A DNA stretch of 64,000 bases from Crocinitomicaceae bacterium (GTDB taxonomy: Bacteria > Bacteroidota > Bacteroidia > Flavobacteriales_D > Crocinitomicaceae): positions 460,922-524,921 of the forward strand of contig JBBCIY010000002.1 in NCBI GenBank assembly GCA_037189645.1, read 5' to 3'. Under the pieces are notes generated by a model. That model was not told the DNA's origin and did not search any database. It was given only the letters and a program-made list of their open reading frames with translations. The first letter of the stretch is position 1. Each line of letters begins with the position of its first letter. Made by a program: the position numbers and the translations under genes. This document shows positions 4,368 through 31,045 of the stretch, in pieces.

Positions 4368-4829
4368 ATGGCAGGCTTAGTAGGAGAATATGAAGTAAAG
4401 TTGGACGCGAAAGGGCGTTTCTTGTTTCCGGCAGGTTTACGGAAGCAGCTTCCTCCTGTATCCCAGAATGATTTCATGCTGAACAAGGGATTTGAAGACT
4501 GTCTCACGCTGTACCCGCTTGTAGAGTGGGAAAAGATCAGCGAGAGGTTGTCAAAGATGAATTTGTTCAAGCCGAAGAACCGAATGTTTTACCGGTTGTT
4601 CCACCAGGGAGCGAAACAGGTTTCACTGGATAACGCGGGCAGGATTCTGATCCCGTCAACCCATGTGGAACGTGTCGGTATCAAACAGGATGTTATGCTC
4701 ATTGCTTACAATGACCGCATTGAAATCTGGGATAAAGCCAAATACTTCGCATTGATCGAAGAGAACATGGTGGATTTCGCTGATCTGGCGGATGAAGTAA
4801 TGGGAGATCTAAATGACGGAGACGAATAA
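4368..4829 (+). CDS. mraZ: Transcriptional regulator MraZ
   Basis: 153 aa. N-terminus MAGLVGEYEVKLDAKGRFLFPAGLRKQL is the canonical MraZ start. Duplicated MraZ/SpoVT-AbrB fold. First gene of the dcw cluster. Confidence 0.95.
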   Translation: MAGLVGEYEVKLDAKGRFLFPAGLRKQLPPVSQNDFMLNKGFEDCLTLYPLVEWEKISERLSKMNLFKPKNRMFYRLFHQGAKQVSLDNAGRILIPSTHVERVGIKQDVMLIAYNDRIEIWDKAKYFALIEENMVDFADLADEVMGDLNDGDE

Positions 4830-22681: not shown

Positions 22682-24067
22682 ATGGACATCAGGAAAATAA
22701 ATATCAGTTTAAGTGCTTTTGAAAACATCTATTTCTTGGGAATAGGTGGTATCGGGATGTCCGCGCTTGCCCGTTATTTCAAATCCCTCGGGTGGAATGT
22801 GGCGGGCTATGACAAAACACCTTCTCCTCTGACTGCATCCCTGCAAAGCGAAGGAATTGATGTGCATTACGAAGACCGTAATTCAAGTATCATATCGCCA
22901 TATTGCGATAAGGCGAAAACATTGGTGGTAATAACACCCGCCATTCCGAAAAATATGGGGGAATTACTTCATTTTCAATTCAATGAATTTGAAATTGTAA
23001 AACGCTCCGAAGTGTTGGGGTTGATCACGCAAACGTCGAAAGGGCTTGGAGTTGCAGGTACACACGGAAAAACAACGACAAGCACCATGCTGGCGCACAT
23101 CCTGGACCAGTCGGAAGTCAAGTGTACCGCTTTTTTAGGAGGGATTTCTGCCAATTTCAATTCAAATTTAGTTTTGAATCCGGGGGCTGAATATACCGTG
23201 ATCGAAGCAGACGAATTTGACCGTTCTTTTCTTCGTTTGTCTCCGTTTGCAAGCATTATTACATCTGCCGATCCGGATCACCTGGATATTTACGGCGATG
23301 CGGCTCATTTCAGGGAAGGGTTTGAGTTGTACGCAGGCCTGCATCCTGAAAATGGTATTGTTATTCAGCGTTATGGGTTGAATCTTCCAACTCCGGCAGC
23401 AACATACACGTATGCGGTCGGAAATGCGGAAGCAGATTTTAACGGATATGATCTCAGGTACGAAAATGAGCGTTTTTTAATGAACGTTACGCTGCCCTAT
23501 GAAGGAATGACAGATGTTGAACTGGGAATCCCCGGCTGGCACAATGCGGAAAATGCAGTTGGTTGTATTGCTTTGTGCTATGAGTTGGGACTGGATTTAG
23601 ACACAATCAGAGAAGGTTTACGAACTTTCAGAGGAGTAAAGCGCCGTTTTGAATACATTGTAAAATCGCAGGATTTAATATATATCGACGATTATGCACA
23701 TCATCCGACCGAGATAAAAGCCTTGATCGGTTCCATCCGCCTGATGTACCCGGGCAGAAACGTAACGGGTGTTTTTCAGCCTCATCTGTTTACACGCACC
23801 CGTGATTTTTTCGATGGATTTGCAGAGCAGCTTTCGCGCCTGGATGAAGTGATACTGATGCCGGTATATCCTGCCAGGGAAGAGCCGATTGCAGGTGTTA
23901 CAAGCGATGCGCTGCTCGAAAAGATAACTGCCGGGAAAAAGCAGGTATTATCCCCCGATGAGGTTGTTTCGTACCTATCCGGGAAGAAAGAAGGGGTATT
24001 CCTGACGATCGGGGCGGGAGACATCGACCGGATTGTTGATCGGCTAAAAACAGGATGGAGTGAATAA
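22682..24067 (+). CDS. murC: UDP-N-acetylmuramate--L-alanine ligase MurC
   Basis: 461 aa. YFLGIGGIGMSALA N-domain. P-loop VAGTHGKTTTSTM. Confidence 0.95.
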   Translation: MDIRKINISLSAFENIYFLGIGGIGMSALARYFKSLGWNVAGYDKTPSPLTASLQSEGIDVHYEDRNSSIISPYCDKAKTLVVITPAIPKNMGELLHFQFNEFEIVKRSEVLGLITQTSKGLGVAGTHGKTTTSTMLAHILDQSEVKCTAFLGGISANFNSNLVLNPGAEYTVIEADEFDRSFLRLSPFASIITSADPDHLDIYGDAAHFREGFELYAGLHPENGIVIQRYGLNLPTPAATYTYAVGNAEADFNGYDLRYENERFLMNVTLPYEGMTDVELGIPGWHNAENAVGCIALCYELGLDLDTIREGLRTFRGVKRRFEYIVKSQDLIYIDDYAHHPTEIKALIGSIRLMYPGRNVTGVFQPHLFTRTRDFFDGFAEQLSRLDEVILMPVYPAREEPIAGVTSDALLEKITAGKKQVLSPDEVVSYLSGKKEGVFLTIGAGDIDRIVDRLKTGWSE

Positions 24068-24857
24068 ATGGATAAAAATAGTACTTTGGGTAACTTTCAG
24101 CATCGCTGTTGTTGTGTTGCTTTTCATCACACAGGATGCCCTGAAGAACCTTCCTTTGAAGCCACCGTCCGTGAAGATCAGCGTACATGGAGAAAATTCG
24201 TTTCTGACGGAACAAGAGCTGAAATCACGTCTGGAGCGTAAGAACCTGATCTTTGTCAACCAACGGGTGAAAGACCTGGATCCGGAAAAGGTGGAGCATT
24301 TTATCCGGAGCATGGAAGAAGTAAAAAACGTGGCGGTTTACAACTACCTGGATGGAAGCTGGGACATTGAAATTGAATTGAGAAAGCCCATTGCCCGGAT
24401 TTTCAATACATCCGGACAAAGCTATTTTCTTGATGCCGATGGACATACGATCAGCAGCTCTTCGGAGCACACCGCACGCGTACTCGTTGTGACCGGAATG
24501 ATTCCCGACGGTCCGGGGCAGGAAAGTGTAAACGAAATTATTAACAATGACTCTTTGAAAACTATTCGGAAACTCGATGATGTGTATCGAATTTCGAATT
24601 ATGTTTGCAATGATCCACTAATGCAATCATTAATAGGGCAGATCCACCGGGAAAACAATGGTGATTTTGTTCTGATTCCTTTGGTAGGAGGGCAGAAGAT
24701 TATTTTCGGTTCGGCGTTTTCGGACCAGGAGGTAGCTGAAAAATTTGAAAAATTAAAGATCTTTTACAAAGAAGCGATACCGTACGAGGGATGGAACAAA
24801 TACAGTGAAATTTCTTTAAAGTATGATAAACAGATTGTTTGTAAGAAAAAAGAATAA
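24060..24857 (+). CDS. ftsQ: Cell-division protein FtsQ/DivIB
   Basis: 265 aa. Short cytoplasmic tail, single TM (IVLWVTFSIAVVVLLFI), POTRA-like and beta domains. Dcw position between murC and ftsA. Confidence 0.75.
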   Translation: MNKWIKIVLWVTFSIAVVVLLFITQDALKNLPLKPPSVKISVHGENSFLTEQELKSRLERKNLIFVNQRVKDLDPEKVEHFIRSMEEVKNVAVYNYLDGSWDIEIELRKPIARIFNTSGQSYFLDADGHTISSSSEHTARVLVVTGMIPDGPGQESVNEIINNDSLKTIRKLDDVYRISNYVCNDPLMQSLIGQIHRENNGDFVLIPLVGGQKIIFGSAFSDQEVAEKFEKLKIFYKEAIPYEGWNKYSEISLKYDKQIVCKKKE

Positions 24858-24860
24858 TAT

Positions 24861-26153
24861 ATGTCAAAAGTAGTTGTTGGACTTGATATCGGTACTACGA
24901 AAATAGCTTGTTTCGTAGGAACTCGGAATGAGCACGGGAAGATTGAGATTCTTGCCATGGGACAAGCGGAGTCTCTTGGTGTGGCGCGTGGTATTGTTGA
25001 AAATATCGAAAAAACGATCCAATCCATCAAAACTGCTGTTGAACAGACTCAGGCCAGTATCAGCGGAGAATACGAACTGCAGATCCGGAACGCGTACGTT
25101 GGCGTTGCCGGGCAGCATATCAAGAGCATGCAGCACCGCGGAATGCTGACCAGAAGCAATATTGAGAACGAAATTTCCCAGTTCGACCTGGATGCTTTGG
25201 AAGATGACATGTACAAGATGCTGATGCCTCCCGGGGAGCAGATCATCAAAGTTATCCCAAAGCAATACATCATTGACAACCAGCAGGGCATCAAGGAGCC
25301 GATCGGACACGCGGGTGTAAGGCTGGAAGCCAATTTCCATATCATTACCGGAAACGTGGGGGCATGTACGAATATCATGCGCTGCGCTTCCCGTGCGGGA
25401 CTGGAAGTAAAAGACCTGATCCTGGAGCCGATGGCGTCTGCCGAAGCAGTCCTTTCTGCTGAGGAGAAAGAAGCCGGCGTGGTGCTGGTGGATATCGGAG
25501 GTGGTACGACGGATGTTGCCATTTTTCACGATGGAATTATCCAGCATACAGCGATTATCCCGTTTGGTGGTAACTCCATTACGGAAGACATCAAGGAAGG
25601 GTGTATGATCATGCGCAACCAGGCAGAGCGCCTGAAAGTGAAATTCGGTTCCGCATTGCCGAGCGAAAGCCAGGAAAATGAGATTGTCTGTATTCCGGGG
25701 CTTCGCGGACGTGAGCCGAAAGAGATTTCCGTAAGGAACCTTTCGGGAATCATCAGCGCACGCATGACGGAGATCATTGAGCTGGTAGATTACGAGATCA
25801 TCAATTCAGGATTGAAGAAAAAGCTGATCGGAGGAATTGTGGTAACCGGAGGAGGTGCTCAGCTGAAGCACGTAAAACAGTTATTTGAATACGTTACCGG
25901 AATGGATACCCGCATCGGGTTACCGACAGAGCACCTGGCAAATACGAATGAGCTGGAAAAATTGGCCAGCCCGATGTATTCTACGGGGATCGGACTGGTA
26001 TTGACAGGCTTCAATGATTTAGACCGGAAAAGTCTTGTCAAAGAAGCAAAATCCGACACGGACAGGGTTGCAAGCCAATCTGCGAAACGACGTGGAGGAT
26101 TCTTTGAATCGTTGGTGGAAAAAGGAAAAAGCTGGTTCATGGAAGAAGATTGA
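24861..26153 (+). CDS. ftsA: Cell-division protein FtsA
   Basis: 430 aa, actin-like ATPase (VVGLDIGTTKIACFVG; DIGGGTTDVAIF). C-terminal amphipathic membrane-targeting helix. Confidence 0.95.
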   Translation: MSKVVVGLDIGTTKIACFVGTRNEHGKIEILAMGQAESLGVARGIVENIEKTIQSIKTAVEQTQASISGEYELQIRNAYVGVAGQHIKSMQHRGMLTRSNIENEISQFDLDALEDDMYKMLMPPGEQIIKVIPKQYIIDNQQGIKEPIGHAGVRLEANFHIITGNVGACTNIMRCASRAGLEVKDLILEPMASAEAVLSAEEKEAGVVLVDIGGGTTDVAIFHDGIIQHTAIIPFGGNSITEDIKEGCMIMRNQAERLKVKFGSALPSESQENEIVCIPGLRGREPKEISVRNLSGIISARMTEIIELVDYEIINSGLKKKLIGGIVVTGGGAQLKHVKQLFEYVTGMDTRIGLPTEHLANTNELEKLASPMYSTGIGLVLTGFNDLDRKSLVKEAKSDTDRVASQSAKRRGGFFESLVEKGKSWFMEED

Positions 26154-26214
26154 TTTCTTTTGAAGCCAAAACTATGAGAGACAATTTAACAACAGACAAC
26201 TAAAAGAAAAGAAT

Positions 26215-27870
26215 ATGGAATTTGATTTGCCAAAAGAAAACTCGTCAATCATCAAAGTAATTGGTGTAGGAGGAGGAGGTAGCAATGCCGTAAATCACAT
26301 GTATAATCAGGGGATTATCGGGGTAGACTTTATCGTATGCAATACGGATAAGCAGGCATTGGACATTTCACCGGTACCTTATAAAATCCAGCTGGGACCA
26401 TCCCTTACGGACGGTAGAGGGGCAGGTTCTATTCCTGAGATCGGTAAAAATGCTGCTGTTGAAAACATTGAGGAAATCCGCGAATTGCTGGCCAACAATA
26501 CAAAAATGGTATTTGTTACTGCGGGTATGGGAGGTGGAACCGGAACAGGGGCCGCTCCGGTAATTGCAGGCGTTGCCAAAGAACTTGGAATCCTTACAGT
26601 AGGTATTGTTACTGTACCGTTCAATTTTGAAGGACGTCGCCGCCGTCAGCAGGCAGAGGAAGGACTGGACGCGATGCGCCAGAATGTCGATGCGTTGCTG
26701 ATCATCAACAACGAACGTCTGCGTGAAGTCACAGGAAACCTGACGATCGGAAACGCATTCGCACAGGCCGATGATGTATTGACTGTCGCGGCAAAAGGAA
26801 TTGCGGAGGTGATTTCCGTAACAGGTATCATCAACACGGATTTGAACGACGTGAATACCGTAATGCGTAATTCAGGTGTTGCGATTATGGGTAGCGCGAG
26901 CGCTGAAGGAGAAAACAGATCGCTGCTTGCTGTTCAGCAGGCCTTGTCTTCTCCGTTGTTGAATGACAATGACATCAGGGGCGCGAATTATGTATTGCTG
27001 AACATCACTTACGGTGATGCTGAAATTACAATGGATGAAATGGCAGAAATCACAGACTATATCCAGGATGAAGCAGGTTCAACGGCCGAGATTATTTTCG
27101 GACACGGTTACGATGCTTCTCTGGGCAACAGGTTGAGTGTAACGGTCATTGCGACAGGTTTTGTTTCTTCGCCGATCACGGGTTTTGAAAAAGCCCCGGA
27201 AAAACAACGCACTGTTCTGGAAGATGAGCCAAAGGCAGAAATAAAAGCACCTTTGACTTCTCCGACAGAATCGAATGTTTGGGGCGGAGCAAAAGAAATC
27301 ACGGCAGAGCAGGAAGAGCCTTTTATCAAAAAAGCGGAAGAGCCGGTTGTCCCTAAGACATCGTTCCCGTCGAATCCTTCATCTTCATCAGCTCCGGCTG
27401 ATACCGTGAAGAAAGTCAACCTGGATGACGAGGTTGTGGAACAGAGCTCAATGAATTTTGACTGGGAAATTGCGAATGAAACTGCTCCGGCAGCTCCTGA
27501 AAATAAAGTAGAAGAAGTTGAAACACCTGTTGTAAGCGAAGTAAAACGCTATACACTGGAAGATGATGAAGTGGAGCAGAAAATAGAAGCAGCTGAGGAA
27601 ACAAAGCAGGTGCTTTCACCGGAAGAGCAGCAGAGAAAGCAGCAGGAGCGAATGAACCGCATTCATGAGTTCACTTCCCGCCTGAAAAAAGCGGATGGAA
27701 TCATCCAGTTTGAAAAAGAGCCTGCATACACCCGTCGTAACATCAATGTGGAGAACGGAGGTAACTACAGCTCGGATTCCAATTCTTCCAGGTTCTCTGT
27801 CGATAAGGACGAAAACGGTGAAACACGCCTGAGAGGAGGAAATTCGTTCTTACACGATAATGTTGACTGA
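26215..27870 (+). CDS. ftsZ: Cell-division GTPase FtsZ with long disordered C-terminal linker
   Basis: 551 aa. Tubulin signature GGGTGTG (AGMGGGTGTGAAPVIA). T7 loop NxDFAD-like region. About 230-aa E/P/S/K-rich linker ending in a conserved C-terminal peptide. Confidence 0.95.
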   Translation: MEFDLPKENSSIIKVIGVGGGGSNAVNHMYNQGIIGVDFIVCNTDKQALDISPVPYKIQLGPSLTDGRGAGSIPEIGKNAAVENIEEIRELLANNTKMVFVTAGMGGGTGTGAAPVIAGVAKELGILTVGIVTVPFNFEGRRRRQQAEEGLDAMRQNVDALLIINNERLREVTGNLTIGNAFAQADDVLTVAAKGIAEVISVTGIINTDLNDVNTVMRNSGVAIMGSASAEGENRSLLAVQQALSSPLLNDNDIRGANYVLLNITYGDAEITMDEMAEITDYIQDEAGSTAEIIFGHGYDASLGNRLSVTVIATGFVSSPITGFEKAPEKQRTVLEDEPKAEIKAPLTSPTESNVWGGAKEITAEQEEPFIKKAEEPVVPKTSFPSNPSSSSAPADTVKKVNLDDEVVEQSSMNFDWEIANETAPAAPENKVEEVETPVVSEVKRYTLEDDEVEQKIEAAEETKQVLSPEEQQRKQQERMNRIHEFTSRLKKADGIIQFEKEPAYTRRNINVENGGNYSSDSNSSRFSVDKDENGETRLRGGNSFLHDNVD

Positions 27871-27922
27871 TTTCCTTTTGCTTAACATTCCCTTCAAAGG
27901 GAAAGAAATTTATAGATAGAAC

Positions 27923-28372
27923 ATGAGTTTTACAGATAAAATTAACGCAGATATCAAAGCAGCAATGCTGGCCAAAGAAAAGGAACGCCTGGCTGCGCTG
28001 CGCGACATCAAATCAAAGCTGCTGCTGGAAGCGACCTCGGGAGGTTCCGGTGAGGTAACGGAAGAAGCGGCTGCGAAAATCGTTTTGAAATTGTACAAAC
28101 AACGGATTGATACATACAATCTGTATGTAGAGCAGGGGAGACAGGACCTGGCAGACGAAGAGCTGTTCCAGGCAAAAGTGATCGAAGAGTACATGCCAAA
28201 ACAGCTGACCGAAGATGAAATCAGGGCTGAAGTAAAGTCCGCAATTGCATCTGTCGGCGCATCTGCCCCATCTGATATGGGGAAAGTAATGGGGGTTCTT
28301 ACAGGTAAACTGGCAGGGAAAGCAGACGGAAAAGTCATCTCTGCTATTGTTAAGGAAGAACTTTCCAGGTAA
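27923..28372 (+). CDS. GatB/YqeY-domain protein
   Basis: 149 aa. N-terminus MSFTDKINADIKAAMLAKEKERLAALRDIKS and the rest match the YqeY/GatB_Yqey family. Confidence 0.85.
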   Translation: MSFTDKINADIKAAMLAKEKERLAALRDIKSKLLLEATSGGSGEVTEEAAAKIVLKLYKQRIDTYNLYVEQGRQDLADEELFQAKVIEEYMPKQLTEDEIRAEVKSAIASVGASAPSDMGKVMGVLTGKLAGKADGKVISAIVKEELSR

Positions 28373-28411
28373 TTTGCATTCTACAAAAAACAACGTATAA
28401 TTTTTTCGTTG

Positions 28412-28448
28412 AAAAGTCGTTCCAACTACAGGGGAGCGACTTTTTTGT
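28412..28448 (+). terminator. Intrinsic terminator after the gatB/yqeY gene
   Basis: AAGTCG (28414-28419) pairs with CGACTT (28437-28442) around a 17-nt loop, followed by TTTTTTGTT. Confidence 0.45.
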
Positions 28449-28465
28449 TATAAAAAAAACAGGCC

Positions 28466-28885
28466 ATGAATAAAGAAACGGAAGGCAAATTAATGGATAA
28501 AAATACCAGGCCGACCAGCATGCGGATCCTGGTGTACGATTTCCTGAATACACAGGAGATTGCGTTGTCTTTATCTGAAATAGAGCACCATTTTGACTCC
28601 GCCGACCGGATCACCATTTACCGGACGCTTAAAACATTTGAAGAAAAAGGGATCGTTCACGGTATCCAGGAAGGAAATACGACCAAATACAGGCTTTGTC
28701 ACGACGATTGTGATGAAAATACCCATAAGGACTGGCACCTGCATTTTTATTGCAAAATATGCAAGCAAACGACCTGTAAGGAAGATGTGGTCATCCCGGC
28801 TGATGTGAGGGGAAAATTCAGAATAGATGAGATCCGCTTTTTCGCGAAGGGAATTTGTGAGAATTGCATAGAGGAAGCGGGCTGA
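28466..28885 (+). CDS. Fur-family metal-uptake/efflux regulator (Zur-like)
   Basis: 139 aa. Winged-helix N-domain (MRILVYDFLNT...ITIYRTLKTFEEKGIV). C-terminal metal sites HDDCDENTHKDWHLHFYCKICKQTTC and CENC. An alternative start lies at 28493. Confidence 0.85.
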   Translation: MNKETEGKLMDKNTRPTSMRILVYDFLNTQEIALSLSEIEHHFDSADRITIYRTLKTFEEKGIVHGIQEGNTTKYRLCHDDCDENTHKDWHLHFYCKICKQTTCKEDVVIPADVRGKFRIDEIRFFAKGICENCIEEAG

Positions 28886-28964
28886 AAATTCGTTTATTGA
28901 TTGGCAATGCTGCTTTCCCGGGAATGATATTCTCATAGCGGAAACAGTGATTAATTCCATACTT

Positions 28965-28979
28965 TGCAATAGTATTGCA
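28965..28979. promoter_or_regulatory. Perfect 7-1-7 palindrome TGCAATA-G-TATTGCA, candidate Fur/Zur-family operator of the P-type ATPase gene
   Basis: Seen directly in sequence, 21 bp upstream of the ATPase ATG and 80 bp downstream of the Fur-family gene. AT-rich dyad of the size expected for Fur-family boxes. Confidence 0.5.
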
Positions 28980-28999
28980 CCTTTCTTCTTCCTACTTTT

Positions 29000-31045
29000 G
29001 TGTCATCAGAATCAGATTCATGGAATAAATTAAACAGATTCATCATGGCACACGAGCACATTTACGACGAAAACGGGCAACAACTATGCTGTACACAATC
29101 AGAAAAGATATACGCAAAGGCAGAAGAACATTCCCATCATCATGACGGGCACGATCATGATCACAGCCATGACCATAGCGAAGCAGGTACGTTCAGTTTG
29201 TTTTTGCCTGCGGTTATTTCTTTTGTATTGCTGATGATTGCCATTGCATTTGACAATTGGCTTCCGCAAAGCTGGTTTTCGGGATGGGTACGTATTTTAT
29301 GGTACGTTGTGGCCTATATCCCGGTTGGATTCCCGGTCATAAAAGATGCCGTAACAAGTATCGGGAAAGGTGATGTGTTCTCCGAATTTTTCCTGATGAC
29401 CATTGCAACAGTCGGAGCTTTTGCGATCGGGGAATACCCGGAGGGAGTTGCGGTGATGCTGTTTTACGCAGTGGGTGAGGTGTTTCAGACACTCGCTGTT
29501 TCCCGTGCAAAAGGGAACATCAAATCGCTGCTGGATCAGCGTCCGGATGAAGTGACAATCCTCGAAAATGACGAGGCGAAGACCGTAAAAGCGGAAGAAG
29601 CCCGGATCGGTGACATCATCCAGCTGAGACCAGGAGAAAAGCTGGGACTGGACGGAGAGCTTATTTCTGCCTCTGCTTCGTTCAATACAGCAGCTTTAAC
29701 AGGAGAAAGTAAGCCCGATACGAAGAACCAGGGCGATGTAGTACTGGCCGGGATGATCAACCTGAATACAGTGAGCCGGGTCAGGGTTACGACAGCATAT
29801 ACGGACAGCAAATTGAGCAAGATACTGGAGCTCGTACAAAACGCCACTTCCCAGAAAGCACCTACAGAGCTGTTCATCCGCAAATTTGCCAAGATCTATA
29901 CCCCGATCGTGGTGTTTCTGGCAATCGGGATTTGTTTCCTGCCTTATTTCTTTGTGGATGATTACCAGTTCAATGATTGGTTATACCGGGCGTTGATCTT
30001 CCTCGTGATCTCCTGTCCGTGCGCACTCGTCATTTCCATCCCGCTGGGTTATTTCGGAGGGATCGGTGCTGCCAGCCGGAACGGAATACTGGTAAAAGGA
30101 AGCAATTTCTTGGATGTGCTCGCCTCTGTTCAAAACGTGGTGATGGACAAGACGGGAACCATGACTGAAGGTGTGTTTAAGGTGCAGGAGGTGGTATTTG
30201 CTCCTGAGTTTGACCGGGATGAGATCCTGCGGATGGTCAACGTGCTGGAAAGCCAGAGTACACACCCGATCGCAACGGCTGTCCGTGAGTATGTCGGTGA
30301 GCTGGATAAAACCGTTCAGCTGGAAAATACGGAAGAGATCGCAGGACATGGACTGAAAACAACCATCAACGGGAAAGAATTGCTTGCCGGGAATTTCAAA
30401 TTGATGAATAAATTCAATATCCGGTATGGTATCAATCCTTCGGATATTGTGTACACAACGATCGCAATTGCTTACGACAGTCAGTTTGTCGGATACATTA
30501 CCATTGCCGACAGCATCAAAGAAGATTCACAGAAAACCATTGACCTGCTGCACCAGATGAATGTGAAAGCAACGATGTTGAGTGGTGACAAAAGTACGGT
30601 TGTTAAATACGTTGCCGGACAATTGGGAATCGATAATTCGCATGGAGATTTATTGCCGGAAGATAAGGTAAACAAGGTAAAAGAAATAAAAGCCCGAAAT
30701 GAAAGCGTTGCGTTTGTCGGTGATGGTGTAAACGATGCCCCGGTAATTGCCTTGAGTGATGTAGGGATCGCGATGGGAGGGCTGGGCAGCGATGCAACCA
30801 TTGAAACAGCGGATATTGTTATCCAGGACGATAAACCTTCCAGGATCCCGGTGGCGATCAACATTGGAAAGCAGACAAAAAAGATCGTCTGGCAGAACAT
30901 TATTCTTGCCTTTGGCGTCAAAGCAATTGTGCTGATCCTGGGAGCAGGGGGCCTGGCAACGATGTGGGAAGCCGTTTTTGCAGATGTGGGAGTGGCATTA
31001 CTGGCAATCCTGAATGCAGTGAGGATCCAGCGGATGCAGTTTTGA
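29000..31045 (+). CDS. Heavy-metal (Zn/Cd/Pb-type) translocating P1B-ATPase with His-rich N-terminus
   Basis: 681 aa. TM CPC motif (SCPCALVIS). DKTGT phosphorylation site. GDGVNDAP hinge. HP motif (STHPIA). N-terminal His-rich metal-binding stretch HSHHHDGHDHDHSHDHSE instead of a CxxC HMA domain. Confidence 0.9.
   Translation: MSSESDSWNKLNRFIMAHEHIYDENGQQLCCTQSEKIYAKAEEHSHHHDGHDHDHSHDHSEAGTFSLFLPAVISFVLLMIAIAFDNWLPQSWFSGWVRILWYVVAYIPVGFPVIKDAVTSIGKGDVFSEFFLMTIATVGAFAIGEYPEGVAVMLFYAVGEVFQTLAVSRAKGNIKSLLDQRPDEVTILENDEAKTVKAEEARIGDIIQLRPGEKLGLDGELISASASFNTAALTGESKPDTKNQGDVVLAGMINLNTVSRVRVTTAYTDSKLSKILELVQNATSQKAPTELFIRKFAKIYTPIVVFLAIGICFLPYFFVDDYQFNDWLYRALIFLVISCPCALVISIPLGYFGGIGAASRNGILVKGSNFLDVLASVQNVVMDKTGTMTEGVFKVQEVVFAPEFDRDEILRMVNVLESQSTHPIATAVREYVGELDKTVQLENTEEIAGHGLKTTINGKELLAGNFKLMNKFNIRYGINPSDIVYTTIAIAYDSQFVGYITIADSIKEDSQKTIDLLHQMNVKATMLSGDKSTVVKYVAGQLGIDNSHGDLLPEDKVNKVKEIKARNESVAFVGDGVNDAPVIALSDVGIAMGGLGSDATIETADIVIQDDKPSRIPVAINIGKQTKKIVWQNIILAFGVKAIVLILGAGGLATMWEAVFADVGVALLAILNAVRIQRMQF

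Follow-up and report, generated by a model that had tools for sequence, protein, structure and literature searches.

In a stretch of 64,000 nucleotides (nt) from contig JBBCIY010000002.1 of a Crocinitomicaceae bacterium, in the following called the window, the gene for a divergent Fur-family regulator is followed by the inverted repeat TGCAATAGTATTGCA and by the gene for a Zn/Cd-type P1B ATPase. As judged from comparative sequence data, this dyad at positions 28965-28979 is most likely the cognate operator of the adjacent Fur-like protein and controls the Zn/Cd export pump. Our analysis established that the motif is conserved and linked to the regulator, that its geometry is fixed and that the target genes are those of metal efflux. 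An original prediction for this DNA had proposed a unit of regulator, operator and efflux pump, a proposal that is supported by conservation of the motif at ATPase genes as well as at other efflux genes. It had also considered a lineage-specific operator that differs from the classical Fur/Zur boxes. Indeed, the half-site is TGCAAT, the centre contains two base pairs (bp) more than that of GTAAT-n-ATTAC, and the motif is conserved across loci of the Bacteroidota.

The sequence confirms that the dyad is a perfect 15-bp inverted repeat, as originally described, with arms of seven bp around a single central bp (7-1-7). Within the 64-kb window TGCAATAGTATTGCA occurs in a single exact copy. Six perfect 7-1-7 dyads were observed in the window compared to 5.0 ± 2.3 in Markov-1 random sequences, 20 dyads with arms of six bp around three central bp (6-3-6) compared to 19.0 expected, and five matches to the dyad pattern with up to three mismatches compared to 4.3 expected. 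Since the dyad alone does not go beyond chance expectation, the case for a function has to rest on context and conservation.

A total of 92 loci from five classes of the Bacteroidota were gathered through the regulator protein alone. Nearly all of them contain TGCAAT-N3-ATTGCA not more than about 100 nt from the regulator gene or directly upstream of the adjacent efflux gene, and the order of elements is the core, a -7 box of the type TAnnTTTG and then the efflux gene. In these five classes the motif adjoins regulator homologs of 35-80% identity. A lack of conservation at orthologous ATPase genes had been named beforehand as evidence against an operator, and the 92 loci speak to the contrary. 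Eighty genome loci, mostly from Chryseobacterium and relatives, were fetched by a protein pattern, and 79 of them contain TGCAATAG[C/T/G/A][A/G]TTGCA, with at most one mismatch to the copy in the window. The exception comes from a Leadbetterella metagenome-assembled genome (L027, around 4405-4425), where the left half-site TTTGCAATAGCGGTG is the only one present and no ATPase gene follows; the locus looks like a module which decayed after loss of its target gene. While the 7-1-7 layout is perfect in the window, it is the 6-3-6 layout that is conserved across the family, with positions 7 to 9 being variable and asymmetric. The central three positions also vary among modules from metagenomes (A/T, C/G, C/T). 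By this comparison, the perfect 7-1-7 dyad of the window is one variant of a conserved TGCAAT-N3-ATTGCA unit.

In most loci the left half-site coincides with the last two codons and the stop codon of the regulator gene (TTG CAA TAG, Leu-Gln-stop). The right half-site is located outside the regulator open reading frame (ORF) and is equally conserved, with 1.91 bits per position compared to 1.96 bits for the left half-site and 0.30 bits for the spacer that precedes the -7 box (31 dereplicated protein-collected loci). Regulators with a different C-terminus are encoded in the window, in five Epilithonimonas loci and in locus L071. In these cases the motif lies 50-2156 nt past the stop codon, and its distance to the -7 box and to the gene is kept. 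In Pontibacter, the motif is found upstream of a CDF gene, which itself precedes the regulator gene. According to the conserved right half, the moved motifs and the gene order in Pontibacter, the motif moves together with the promoter of its target gene and not with the C-terminus of the regulator. The window regulator ends with CIEEAG instead of the usual CLESLQ, and a gap of 79 nt (28886-28964) separates its stop codon from the operator. The Epilithonimonas loci (L004, L005, L019, L020 and L079, with proteins ending in TFNN) and L071 carry separate insertions at the same place, so that the regulator-operator junction appears to be prone to rearrangement.

Four distant regulators were selected by protein similarity only. 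The query shares 40% identity with the window protein, and the four regulators share 45-65% with this query. All of them, from Paludibacter, a member of the Dysgonamonadaceae, a metagenome lineage and Flavilitoribacter, carry the dyad with no or one mismatch just past the regulator stop codon, and a box-like element follows 13 nt after the dyad. The respective targets are genes for a CDF protein, a P1B ATPase, a PEMT/ICMT-like protein and a CDF protein. A homolog of 36% identity on the Bacteroides finegoldii plasmid NZ_OY725905.1 (L212, 1966-2001) is accompanied by the symmetric sequence TGCAAC-TTT-GTTGCA, from which TACCTTTG is separated by 12 nt. Here the ATPase gene precedes the regulator gene and the dyad is located upstream of the pair. 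The recognition helix of this homolog reads STISRTIALF as compared to ITIYRTLKTF, and the locus may represent a co-variation of protein and operator.

The linkage was also found when starting from the DNA. A metagenome scan using nothing but the pattern TGCAAT-N3-ATTGCA-N13-TAnnTTTG returned at least 122 modules on at least 120 contigs; the following counts refer to the 122 modules listed. For 67 of them a regulator homolog (37-79% identity) is encoded within 450 nt upstream on the same strand, and about half of these homologs share 37-54% identity with the protein of the window. Behind the module, the first gene encodes a P1B ATPase (28 modules), a CDF protein (7) or a CzcA-like RND pump (4), or else a DUF6660 protein (20), a PEMT/ICMT-like protein (9), a transglutaminase-like protein (8) or a His-rich protein (3). 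The rest are assorted singletons, some of which are possibly chance matches. Two of the contigs (L155 and L196) carry two modules each. The original prediction had suggested looking for the motif at genes for zinc uptake as well as efflux, and had regarded its absence from other metal-homeostasis promoters as contrary evidence. The motif is present at CDF, CzcA-type RND, DUF6660 and ICMT-like genes. The expectation for zinc uptake found no counterpart: no uptake genes such as znuABC were seen among the identified genes downstream of the 122 listed modules, which are a sample of loci with some unclassified downstream ORFs.

Genes for DUF6660 proteins (about 108 amino acids (aa), rich in Cys and His, with a signal peptide) are the commonest non-transporter genes behind the listed modules and also occur in L195. 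Two further kinds of protein are recurrently encoded by the first gene (L110, L145, L107, L133, L204, L136, L095 and L210), namely membrane proteins of about 200 aa from the PEMT/ICMT family, to which CzcN/NccN belong, and transglutaminase-like proteins, which comprise 234-239 aa (also L065). In L162 (3708-10921), the regulator gene is followed by the module, a DUF6660 gene, genes for a CzcA-like RND pump of 1437 aa and a probable adaptor of 425 aa, and a gene for a P1B ATPase with an N-terminus of the window type. A role of DUF6660 in metal efflux seems likely from its gene neighbourhood.

The distance between the dyad and the -7 box is nearly invariant. Among 83 sites in the protein-collected loci an exact TAnnTTTG follows 13 nt after the dyad in 73 cases and the variant TAATTTTA at the same distance in nine, the sole exception being a close relative (L069) with 12 nt. 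Core sites outside the full pattern were found twice in 810 kb; a variant box at 13 nt accompanies the first of them, and the second is ambiguous. As the metagenome pattern fixed the gap at 13 nt, the spacing was tested by the protein-collected loci alone, most of which are from Chryseobacterium. In Flavobacterium psychrophilum, mapped transcription starts place the -7 box at -12 to -5 (PMC9723704). Applying this rule to the window yields a predicted transcription start at about 29005 and an operator reaching from about -40 to -26 with its centre at -33, and leaves a 5' untranslated region (5' UTR) of about 40 nt. The coordinates are given in Table 1. Work by Bayley in 2000 and Chen in 2007 reportedly placed the -33 element of Bacteroidetes promoters, a TTG, at a distance of about 19-21 nt before the -7 box. 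A TTG at this usual spacing is not present in the window; its place is taken by operator positions 6-8 (-35 to -33), which read TAG, and the TTG triplets of the operator itself are 15 and 26 nt away from the -7 box. In 83 dereplicated modules the flanks of the operator are asymmetric. AAnTT is favoured at -5 to -1 of the operator (28960-28964 in the window), giving TTTGCAAT, with T at a frequency of 0.59-0.66 compared to a background of 0.35, and there is no mirror preference downstream of the dyad. The TTTG arising from this flank resembles a -33 element but is 26 nt apart from the -7 box.

Table 1 Coordinates of the predicted regulatory unit (window numbering)
Feature	Position	Strand	Basis
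Gene for the divergent Fur-family regulator (139 aa), the presumed dyad-binding protein	28466..28885	+	Pfam FUR, fold
Operator TGCAAT-AGT-ATTGCA	28965-28979 (half-sites 28965-28970 and 28974-28979)	.	conservation
13-nt spacer, conserved in length but not in sequence	28980..28992	+	0.30 bit per position
Bacteroidetes sigma-A -7 box TACTTTTG (consensus TAnnTTTG)	28993..29000	+	sequence and conservation across loci
Predicted transcription start (about 29005) and 5' UTR (about 40 nt)	29005..29044	+	position of the -7 box
Gene for the P1B-2 (Zn/Cd/Pb-type) heavy-metal exporting ATPase (666 aa), the regulated gene	29045..31045	+	family models, motifs

The product of the regulated gene exceeds the cut-offs of the family models TIGR01525 (545 bits) and TIGR01512 (487 bits, cut-off 313.5). 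It contains the motifs CPCALVISIP (CPCx4SxP), NIILAFGVK (Nx7K), DVG (DxG) and DKTGT, and its N-terminus has 11 His residues and a CC pair within the first 65 residues. TIGR01512 and the motifs agree with the earlier assignment to the Zn/Cd-type P1B ATPases; a score below the cut-off of the ZntA 'exception' model indicates that the protein is not a strict ZntA ortholog. The start of the gene had to be revised. The GTG codon at 29000, a mechanically assigned start, is composed of the last base of the -7 box and two more bases, and the ATPase homologs have their start at the position corresponding to ATG 29045 (compare MAHEHIYDENGQQLCC in the window with MEHQHKYDAQGKQLCC in L069; the N-terminus in L162 is similar). 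GTG 29000 was rejected because of its overlap with the conserved box and the start positions of the homologs, and the true start is most likely ATG 29045. Thus, the dyad is located 65 nt upstream of the start codon and not 21 bp as previously given, and the intergenic spacer comprises 159 bp instead of 114 bp. Automatic annotation may over-extend the ATPase gene by 15 codons. A mini-ORF of two codons in the predicted 5' UTR (ATGGAATAA, 29020-29028) is similar to ATGGAAGAATG, with which the ATPases of Chryseobacterium start, and may be left over from an older start.

The gene upstream of the dyad had been assigned to the Fur family, and its product indeed passes the cut-off of Pfam FUR (PF01475; 26.6 bits, cut-off 23.1, E 7e-6), a weak match that marks it as a divergent member. 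All curated NCBIfam models for Zur, Fur and PerR score far below their cut-offs, the best being the Zur equivalog NF008646 with 31.9 bits compared to the required 167. An AlphaFold2 (AF2) model of the protein has a mean pLDDT of 78, and a Foldseek search of the PDB with this model returned Fur, Zur, PerR, Nur or Mur proteins for all of the top 50 hits, with TM scores up to 0.72, in agreement with a winged-helix DNA-binding domain joined to an alpha/beta dimerisation domain. The best fold matches are the E. coli Zur (EcZur)-DNA complex 4mtd (TM 0.72), PerR and the Xanthomonas Zur XcZur, with TM scores of about 0.7, and the nearest solved protein by sequence is also E. coli Zur (E 2e-5). H65, C78 and H87 of the regulator align with H77, C88 and H96 of EcZur, which are the regulatory metal ligands in 4mtd. 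Of 115 full-length representatives of clusters at 50% identity, at least 98% retain the cysteines of C96xxC99 and C131xxC134, a predicted structural Zn(Cys)4 site, and at least 97% retain H65, C78, H91, H93 and C104, while C82, H87 and D89 are found in 60-78%. Residues D47, R48, T50, R53, T54, L55, T57 and F58 in the region of the recognition helix are strongly conserved, which fits a common operator. By its domain, modelled fold and Cys4 site the regulator belongs to the Fur superfamily, and by the sequence models it is placed outside the Zur, Fur and PerR orthologous groups. The earlier label 'Zur-like' is therefore appropriate for the fold and the ligand positions and does not extend to membership in the Zur orthologous group.

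When 1.84 billion cluster representatives were searched exhaustively with phmmer, the family comprised 433 clusters at E ≤1e-10 and 1320 at E ≤1e-3. A regulator search returned 464 proteins at E ≤1e-5, of which the best 120 are 70-100% identical and belong to Chryseobacterium, Sphingobacterium, Olivibacter, Salegentibacter, Pontibacter, Leadbetterella and others. Homologs are encoded on plasmids of Hymenobacter, Adhaeribacter, Pontibacter, Flammeovirga, Flavobacterium, Bacteroides and Parabacteroides, where they are annotated merely as 'transcriptional repressor' or 'Fur family transcriptional regulator'. On a plasmid of Hymenobacter qilianensis the regulator gene is flanked by genes for an RND adaptor and a P1B ATPase, and the dyad overlaps the regulator stop codon. 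To judge from its occurrence on plasmids, the regulator cassette is mobile.

In the model which we prefer, and which we consider to have an even chance of being correct, the dyad serves as the cognate operator for metal-dependent activation. One regulator dimer would bind to TGCAAT-N3-ATTGCA centred at about -33 of the sigma-A promoter. Zn(II) or Cd(II) would load an interdomain sensor site composed of H65, C78, H91, H93 and C104, and the metal-loaded dimer would bind DNA as other Fur proteins do. From its fixed position the bound dimer would then activate RNA polymerase in substitution for the missing -33 element, so that the P1B-2 ATPase would be switched on under metal excess. Physical binding, metal specificity and the sign of regulation are inferred here. 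By homology, metal should promote DNA binding, since the Zur-like interdomain ligands (H65, C78, H87) are kept. To our knowledge, all Fur, Zur, Nur, Mur and PerR proteins that have been studied well bind DNA when loaded with metal. The 13-nt spacing, held across classes (12 nt in L069 and L212) while the sequence of the spacer drifts, is typical of activators that contact the polymerase. Activation is also favoured by the lack of a -33 element, with TAG at -35 to -33, by the need to induce an exporter under excess metal, and by the precedents of Streptomyces coelicolor Zur (ScZur) at zitB (PMC9371925) and of B. subtilis Fur at pfeT (PMC9993123).

Nevertheless, several points weigh against this model. 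Known activating sites of Fur-family proteins are located upstream of -35, that of ScZur at -59 to -45 (PMC9371925), and sigma region 4 would normally be occluded by a site with its centre at -33. The exact -7 consensus at 73 of the 83 sites looks like an intrinsically competent promoter that can be repressed. The spacing, tested as mentioned above mostly in Chryseobacterium, amounts to 12 nt in one distant (L212) and one close (L069) locus, and the transcription start is predicted from the position of the -7 box. The same operator and the same Fur-like protein could act with the opposite sign, a tentative alternative to which we give appreciable weight while doubting it. The protein carrying structural zinc only would block the polymerase at -33, and excess Zn or Cd at the Cys/His site would release it. 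An operator centred at -33 next to a consensus -7 box has indeed the geometry of classical occlusion, the known activating Fur-family sites lie further upstream, and the additional invariant residues C78 and C104 could form a thiolate-rich site with a different allostery. Fur-family proteins that act in this way are known: apo-Fur represses in Helicobacter and Campylobacter, and Irr of alpha-proteobacteria represses the iron exporter gene mbfA, both being bound at low metal signal and releasing an exporter or storage gene at high signal. Irr lacks a Cys4 site and is degraded in a haem-dependent manner, and no relationship of the window regulator to Irr or apo-Fur closer than the superfamily was seen at the sequence level. 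Against derepression, the interdomain ligand positions match those which close Zur onto DNA upon metal binding, simple occlusion leaves the 13-nt spacing across classes with its drifting spacer unexplained, and in most genomes a tight repressor would cover the last codons of its own gene. That a dedicated branch of the Fur family senses metal excess in Bacteroidota from a dyad at the place of the -33 element, be it as a position-locked activator or as a metal-released 'inverse Fur', is in our view rather probable.

It is improbable that the dyad is a promoter-proximal element read by another factor, such as a metal sensor from another locus or the polymerase, with the Fur-like gene being merely co-inherited. 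About 45% of the listed DNA-collected modules have no regulator homolog within 450 nt upstream, which would suit such a factor but is also expected for a regulon with multiple targets, as illustrated by the two modules each in L155 and L196. The asymmetric AAnTT flank yields a TTTG that resembles a -33 element, which at 26 nt from the -7 box is too far away for this function. A zinc regulator of the MerR type is present in the related Riemerella (PMC11960050). The two-way linkage at protein identities of 35-80%, in five classes and with several unrelated targets, the co-variation of operator and protein in B. finegoldii, and a 15-bp dyad whose half-site centres are 9 bp apart, as suits a Fur-type dimer, all speak for the linked protein. 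A MerR-type operator was rejected, as the dyad has its centre at -33 with a gap of 13 nt to the -7 box, and the linked regulator has a Fur fold. We regard it as very improbable that the dyad has no regulatory function at all and is a chance palindrome, a legacy of C-terminal codons, an RNA hairpin or a terminator. Perfect 7-1-7 dyads do occur at chance rate in the window, and the left half-site does consist of the Leu-Gln codons and the stop codon in most homologs. However, the right half-site is equally conserved outside the ORF, and the motif is kept where the sequence is entirely non-coding (window, Epilithonimonas, L071, Pontibacter, L211) as well as in different reading frames. An RNA hairpin with a stem of 6 bp and a loop of 3 nt would have -3.9 kcal/mol, the 71-nt region has a z-score of +1.06, and 175 of 200 shuffled sequences fold at least as well; this candidate was discarded. 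The same holds for a terminator, since no U-tract follows the stem and none was called at the dyad. No Rfam family scored above chance in 28300-29200.

In its logic, the proposed system is similar to Zur at zitB and Fur at pfeT, while its geometry is similar to that of activators replacing a -35 element or of occluding repressors. ScZur activates zitB, encoding a CDF exporter, at high zinc from a 15-bp palindrome near the promoter (PMC9371925; PMC11077047). The ScZur box is located at -59 to -45, with 8 nt between the box and the -35 element that follows it, and oligomers reaching to -138 are required for full activation (PMC9371925). Both systems share a Fur-family metal sensor, predicted in our case, and a 15-bp palindrome near an exporter promoter. 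ScZur is a general repressor of uptake genes with exporter activation as a second role, whereas the window protein is a dedicated paralog beside efflux genes, with a single 6-3-6 dyad of different sequence centred at -33 and a Bacteroidetes -7 promoter. The closest solved relative, EcZur, has the Cys4 site and the positions aligned with H65, C78 and H87 in common with the regulator. EcZur represses uptake genes from an AT-rich box of about 30 bp (znuABC) as a dimer of dimers (PMC9371925). In contrast, the targets here are exporters, the operator is TGCAAT-N3-ATTGCA, and the Zur equivalog model is not passed. B. subtilis Fur is a metal-dependent activator of the P1B4 iron-efflux ATPase PfeT, which is under Fur/PerR control (PMC9993123). 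Fur-family control of a P1B efflux ATPase is thus common to both, whereas the metal, the ATPase subgroup and the use of global Fur/PerR instead of a linked paralog differ. The operators of B. subtilis Fur and PerR are said to be classical 7-1-7 boxes, in work attributed to Baichoo and Helmann in 2002. Classical half-sites are of the TGATAAT, TCGTAAT or TTATAAT type, and TGCAAT does not match the half-site sequence of classical Fur, Zur or PerR boxes.

The MerR-type regulator ZntR at zntA of E. coli has the same physiological task, to turn on the export of zinc or to limit zinc under excess, and an unrelated fold. MerR operators lie between -35 and -10 and their regulators act by DNA distortion, whereas the dyad of the window is located upstream of the spacer and is centred at -33. 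PhoB at pho boxes and lambda cII at PRE are activators whose sites replace or overlap a missing -35 element with fixed spacing to the -10 element. The likeness to these is in geometry only, as PhoB and cII are not related to the regulator and bind to direct repeats. A zinc regulator named 'ZntR' in Riemerella anatipestifer, which shares its family-level lineage with Chryseobacterium, is a MerR protein and the only zinc-excess regulator that we found in the literature for a related flavobacterium (PMC11960050).

A description of the regulator subfamily, its operator or DUF6660 was not found in the literature, although a prior report in subscription journals is possible. The textbook sensors of metal excess are ArsR/SmtB, MerR, CsoR/RcnR, CopY and TetR proteins and two-component systems, and the Fur family is viewed as one of uptake and peroxide regulators which only occasionally activate exporters. 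As the sequences present it, the system consists of an efflux regulator from the Fur family, an operator specific to it and a promoter architecture that is locked in position, and it is widespread in Bacteroidota; it is not categorically new. The subfamily comprises at least 433 clusters at 50% identity, is linked to efflux, includes plasmids of gut Bacteroides and Parabacteroides, and would be the main switch for Zn/Cd excess in the phylum. If this is true, it would add a new operating mode for Fur proteins (activator or inverse Fur), fill the place of the missing Zn/Cd-excess sensor of the phylum, and provide a ready-made regulon of genes for P1B ATPases, CDF proteins, CzcCBA-like RND pumps, DUF6660 and CzcN-like methyltransferases. 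The module is short and of fixed geometry, which would make regulon prediction possible in any Bacteroidota genome and would help to assign a metal role to proteins such as DUF6660. It would also offer an entry to the contact of a Fur dimer with the unusual Bacteroidetes sigma-A polymerase and a compact metal-inducible expression part for Bacteroidota genetics.

The original prediction had also considered a copy of the motif at the regulator gene itself. Upstream of the regulator gene of the window no second operator for autoregulation was found at up to three mismatches, whereas two Chryseobacterium genomes (L074, 3867-3881; L048, 3918-3932) carry a second full module, consisting of the dyad, 13 nt and TATTTTTG, about 85-135 nt upstream of the regulator gene. 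These second modules suggest autoregulation in some lineages. Within the regulator ORF of the window, TGCATTTTTATTGCA at 28740-28754 (codons HLHFYCK) differs by one mismatch from the 6-3-6 core. It was dismissed as an incidental match, as the codon usage in 88 homologs shows no preference for operator-forming codons. Downstream of a yqeY-like gene a hairpin with a T-run (AAAAGTCG...CGACTTTTTT) is located at 28405-28445 and probably ends the upstream murC-ftsQ-ftsA-ftsZ-yqeY cluster (22682-28372). With this cluster being terminated before the regulator gene, the latter would have its own promoter.

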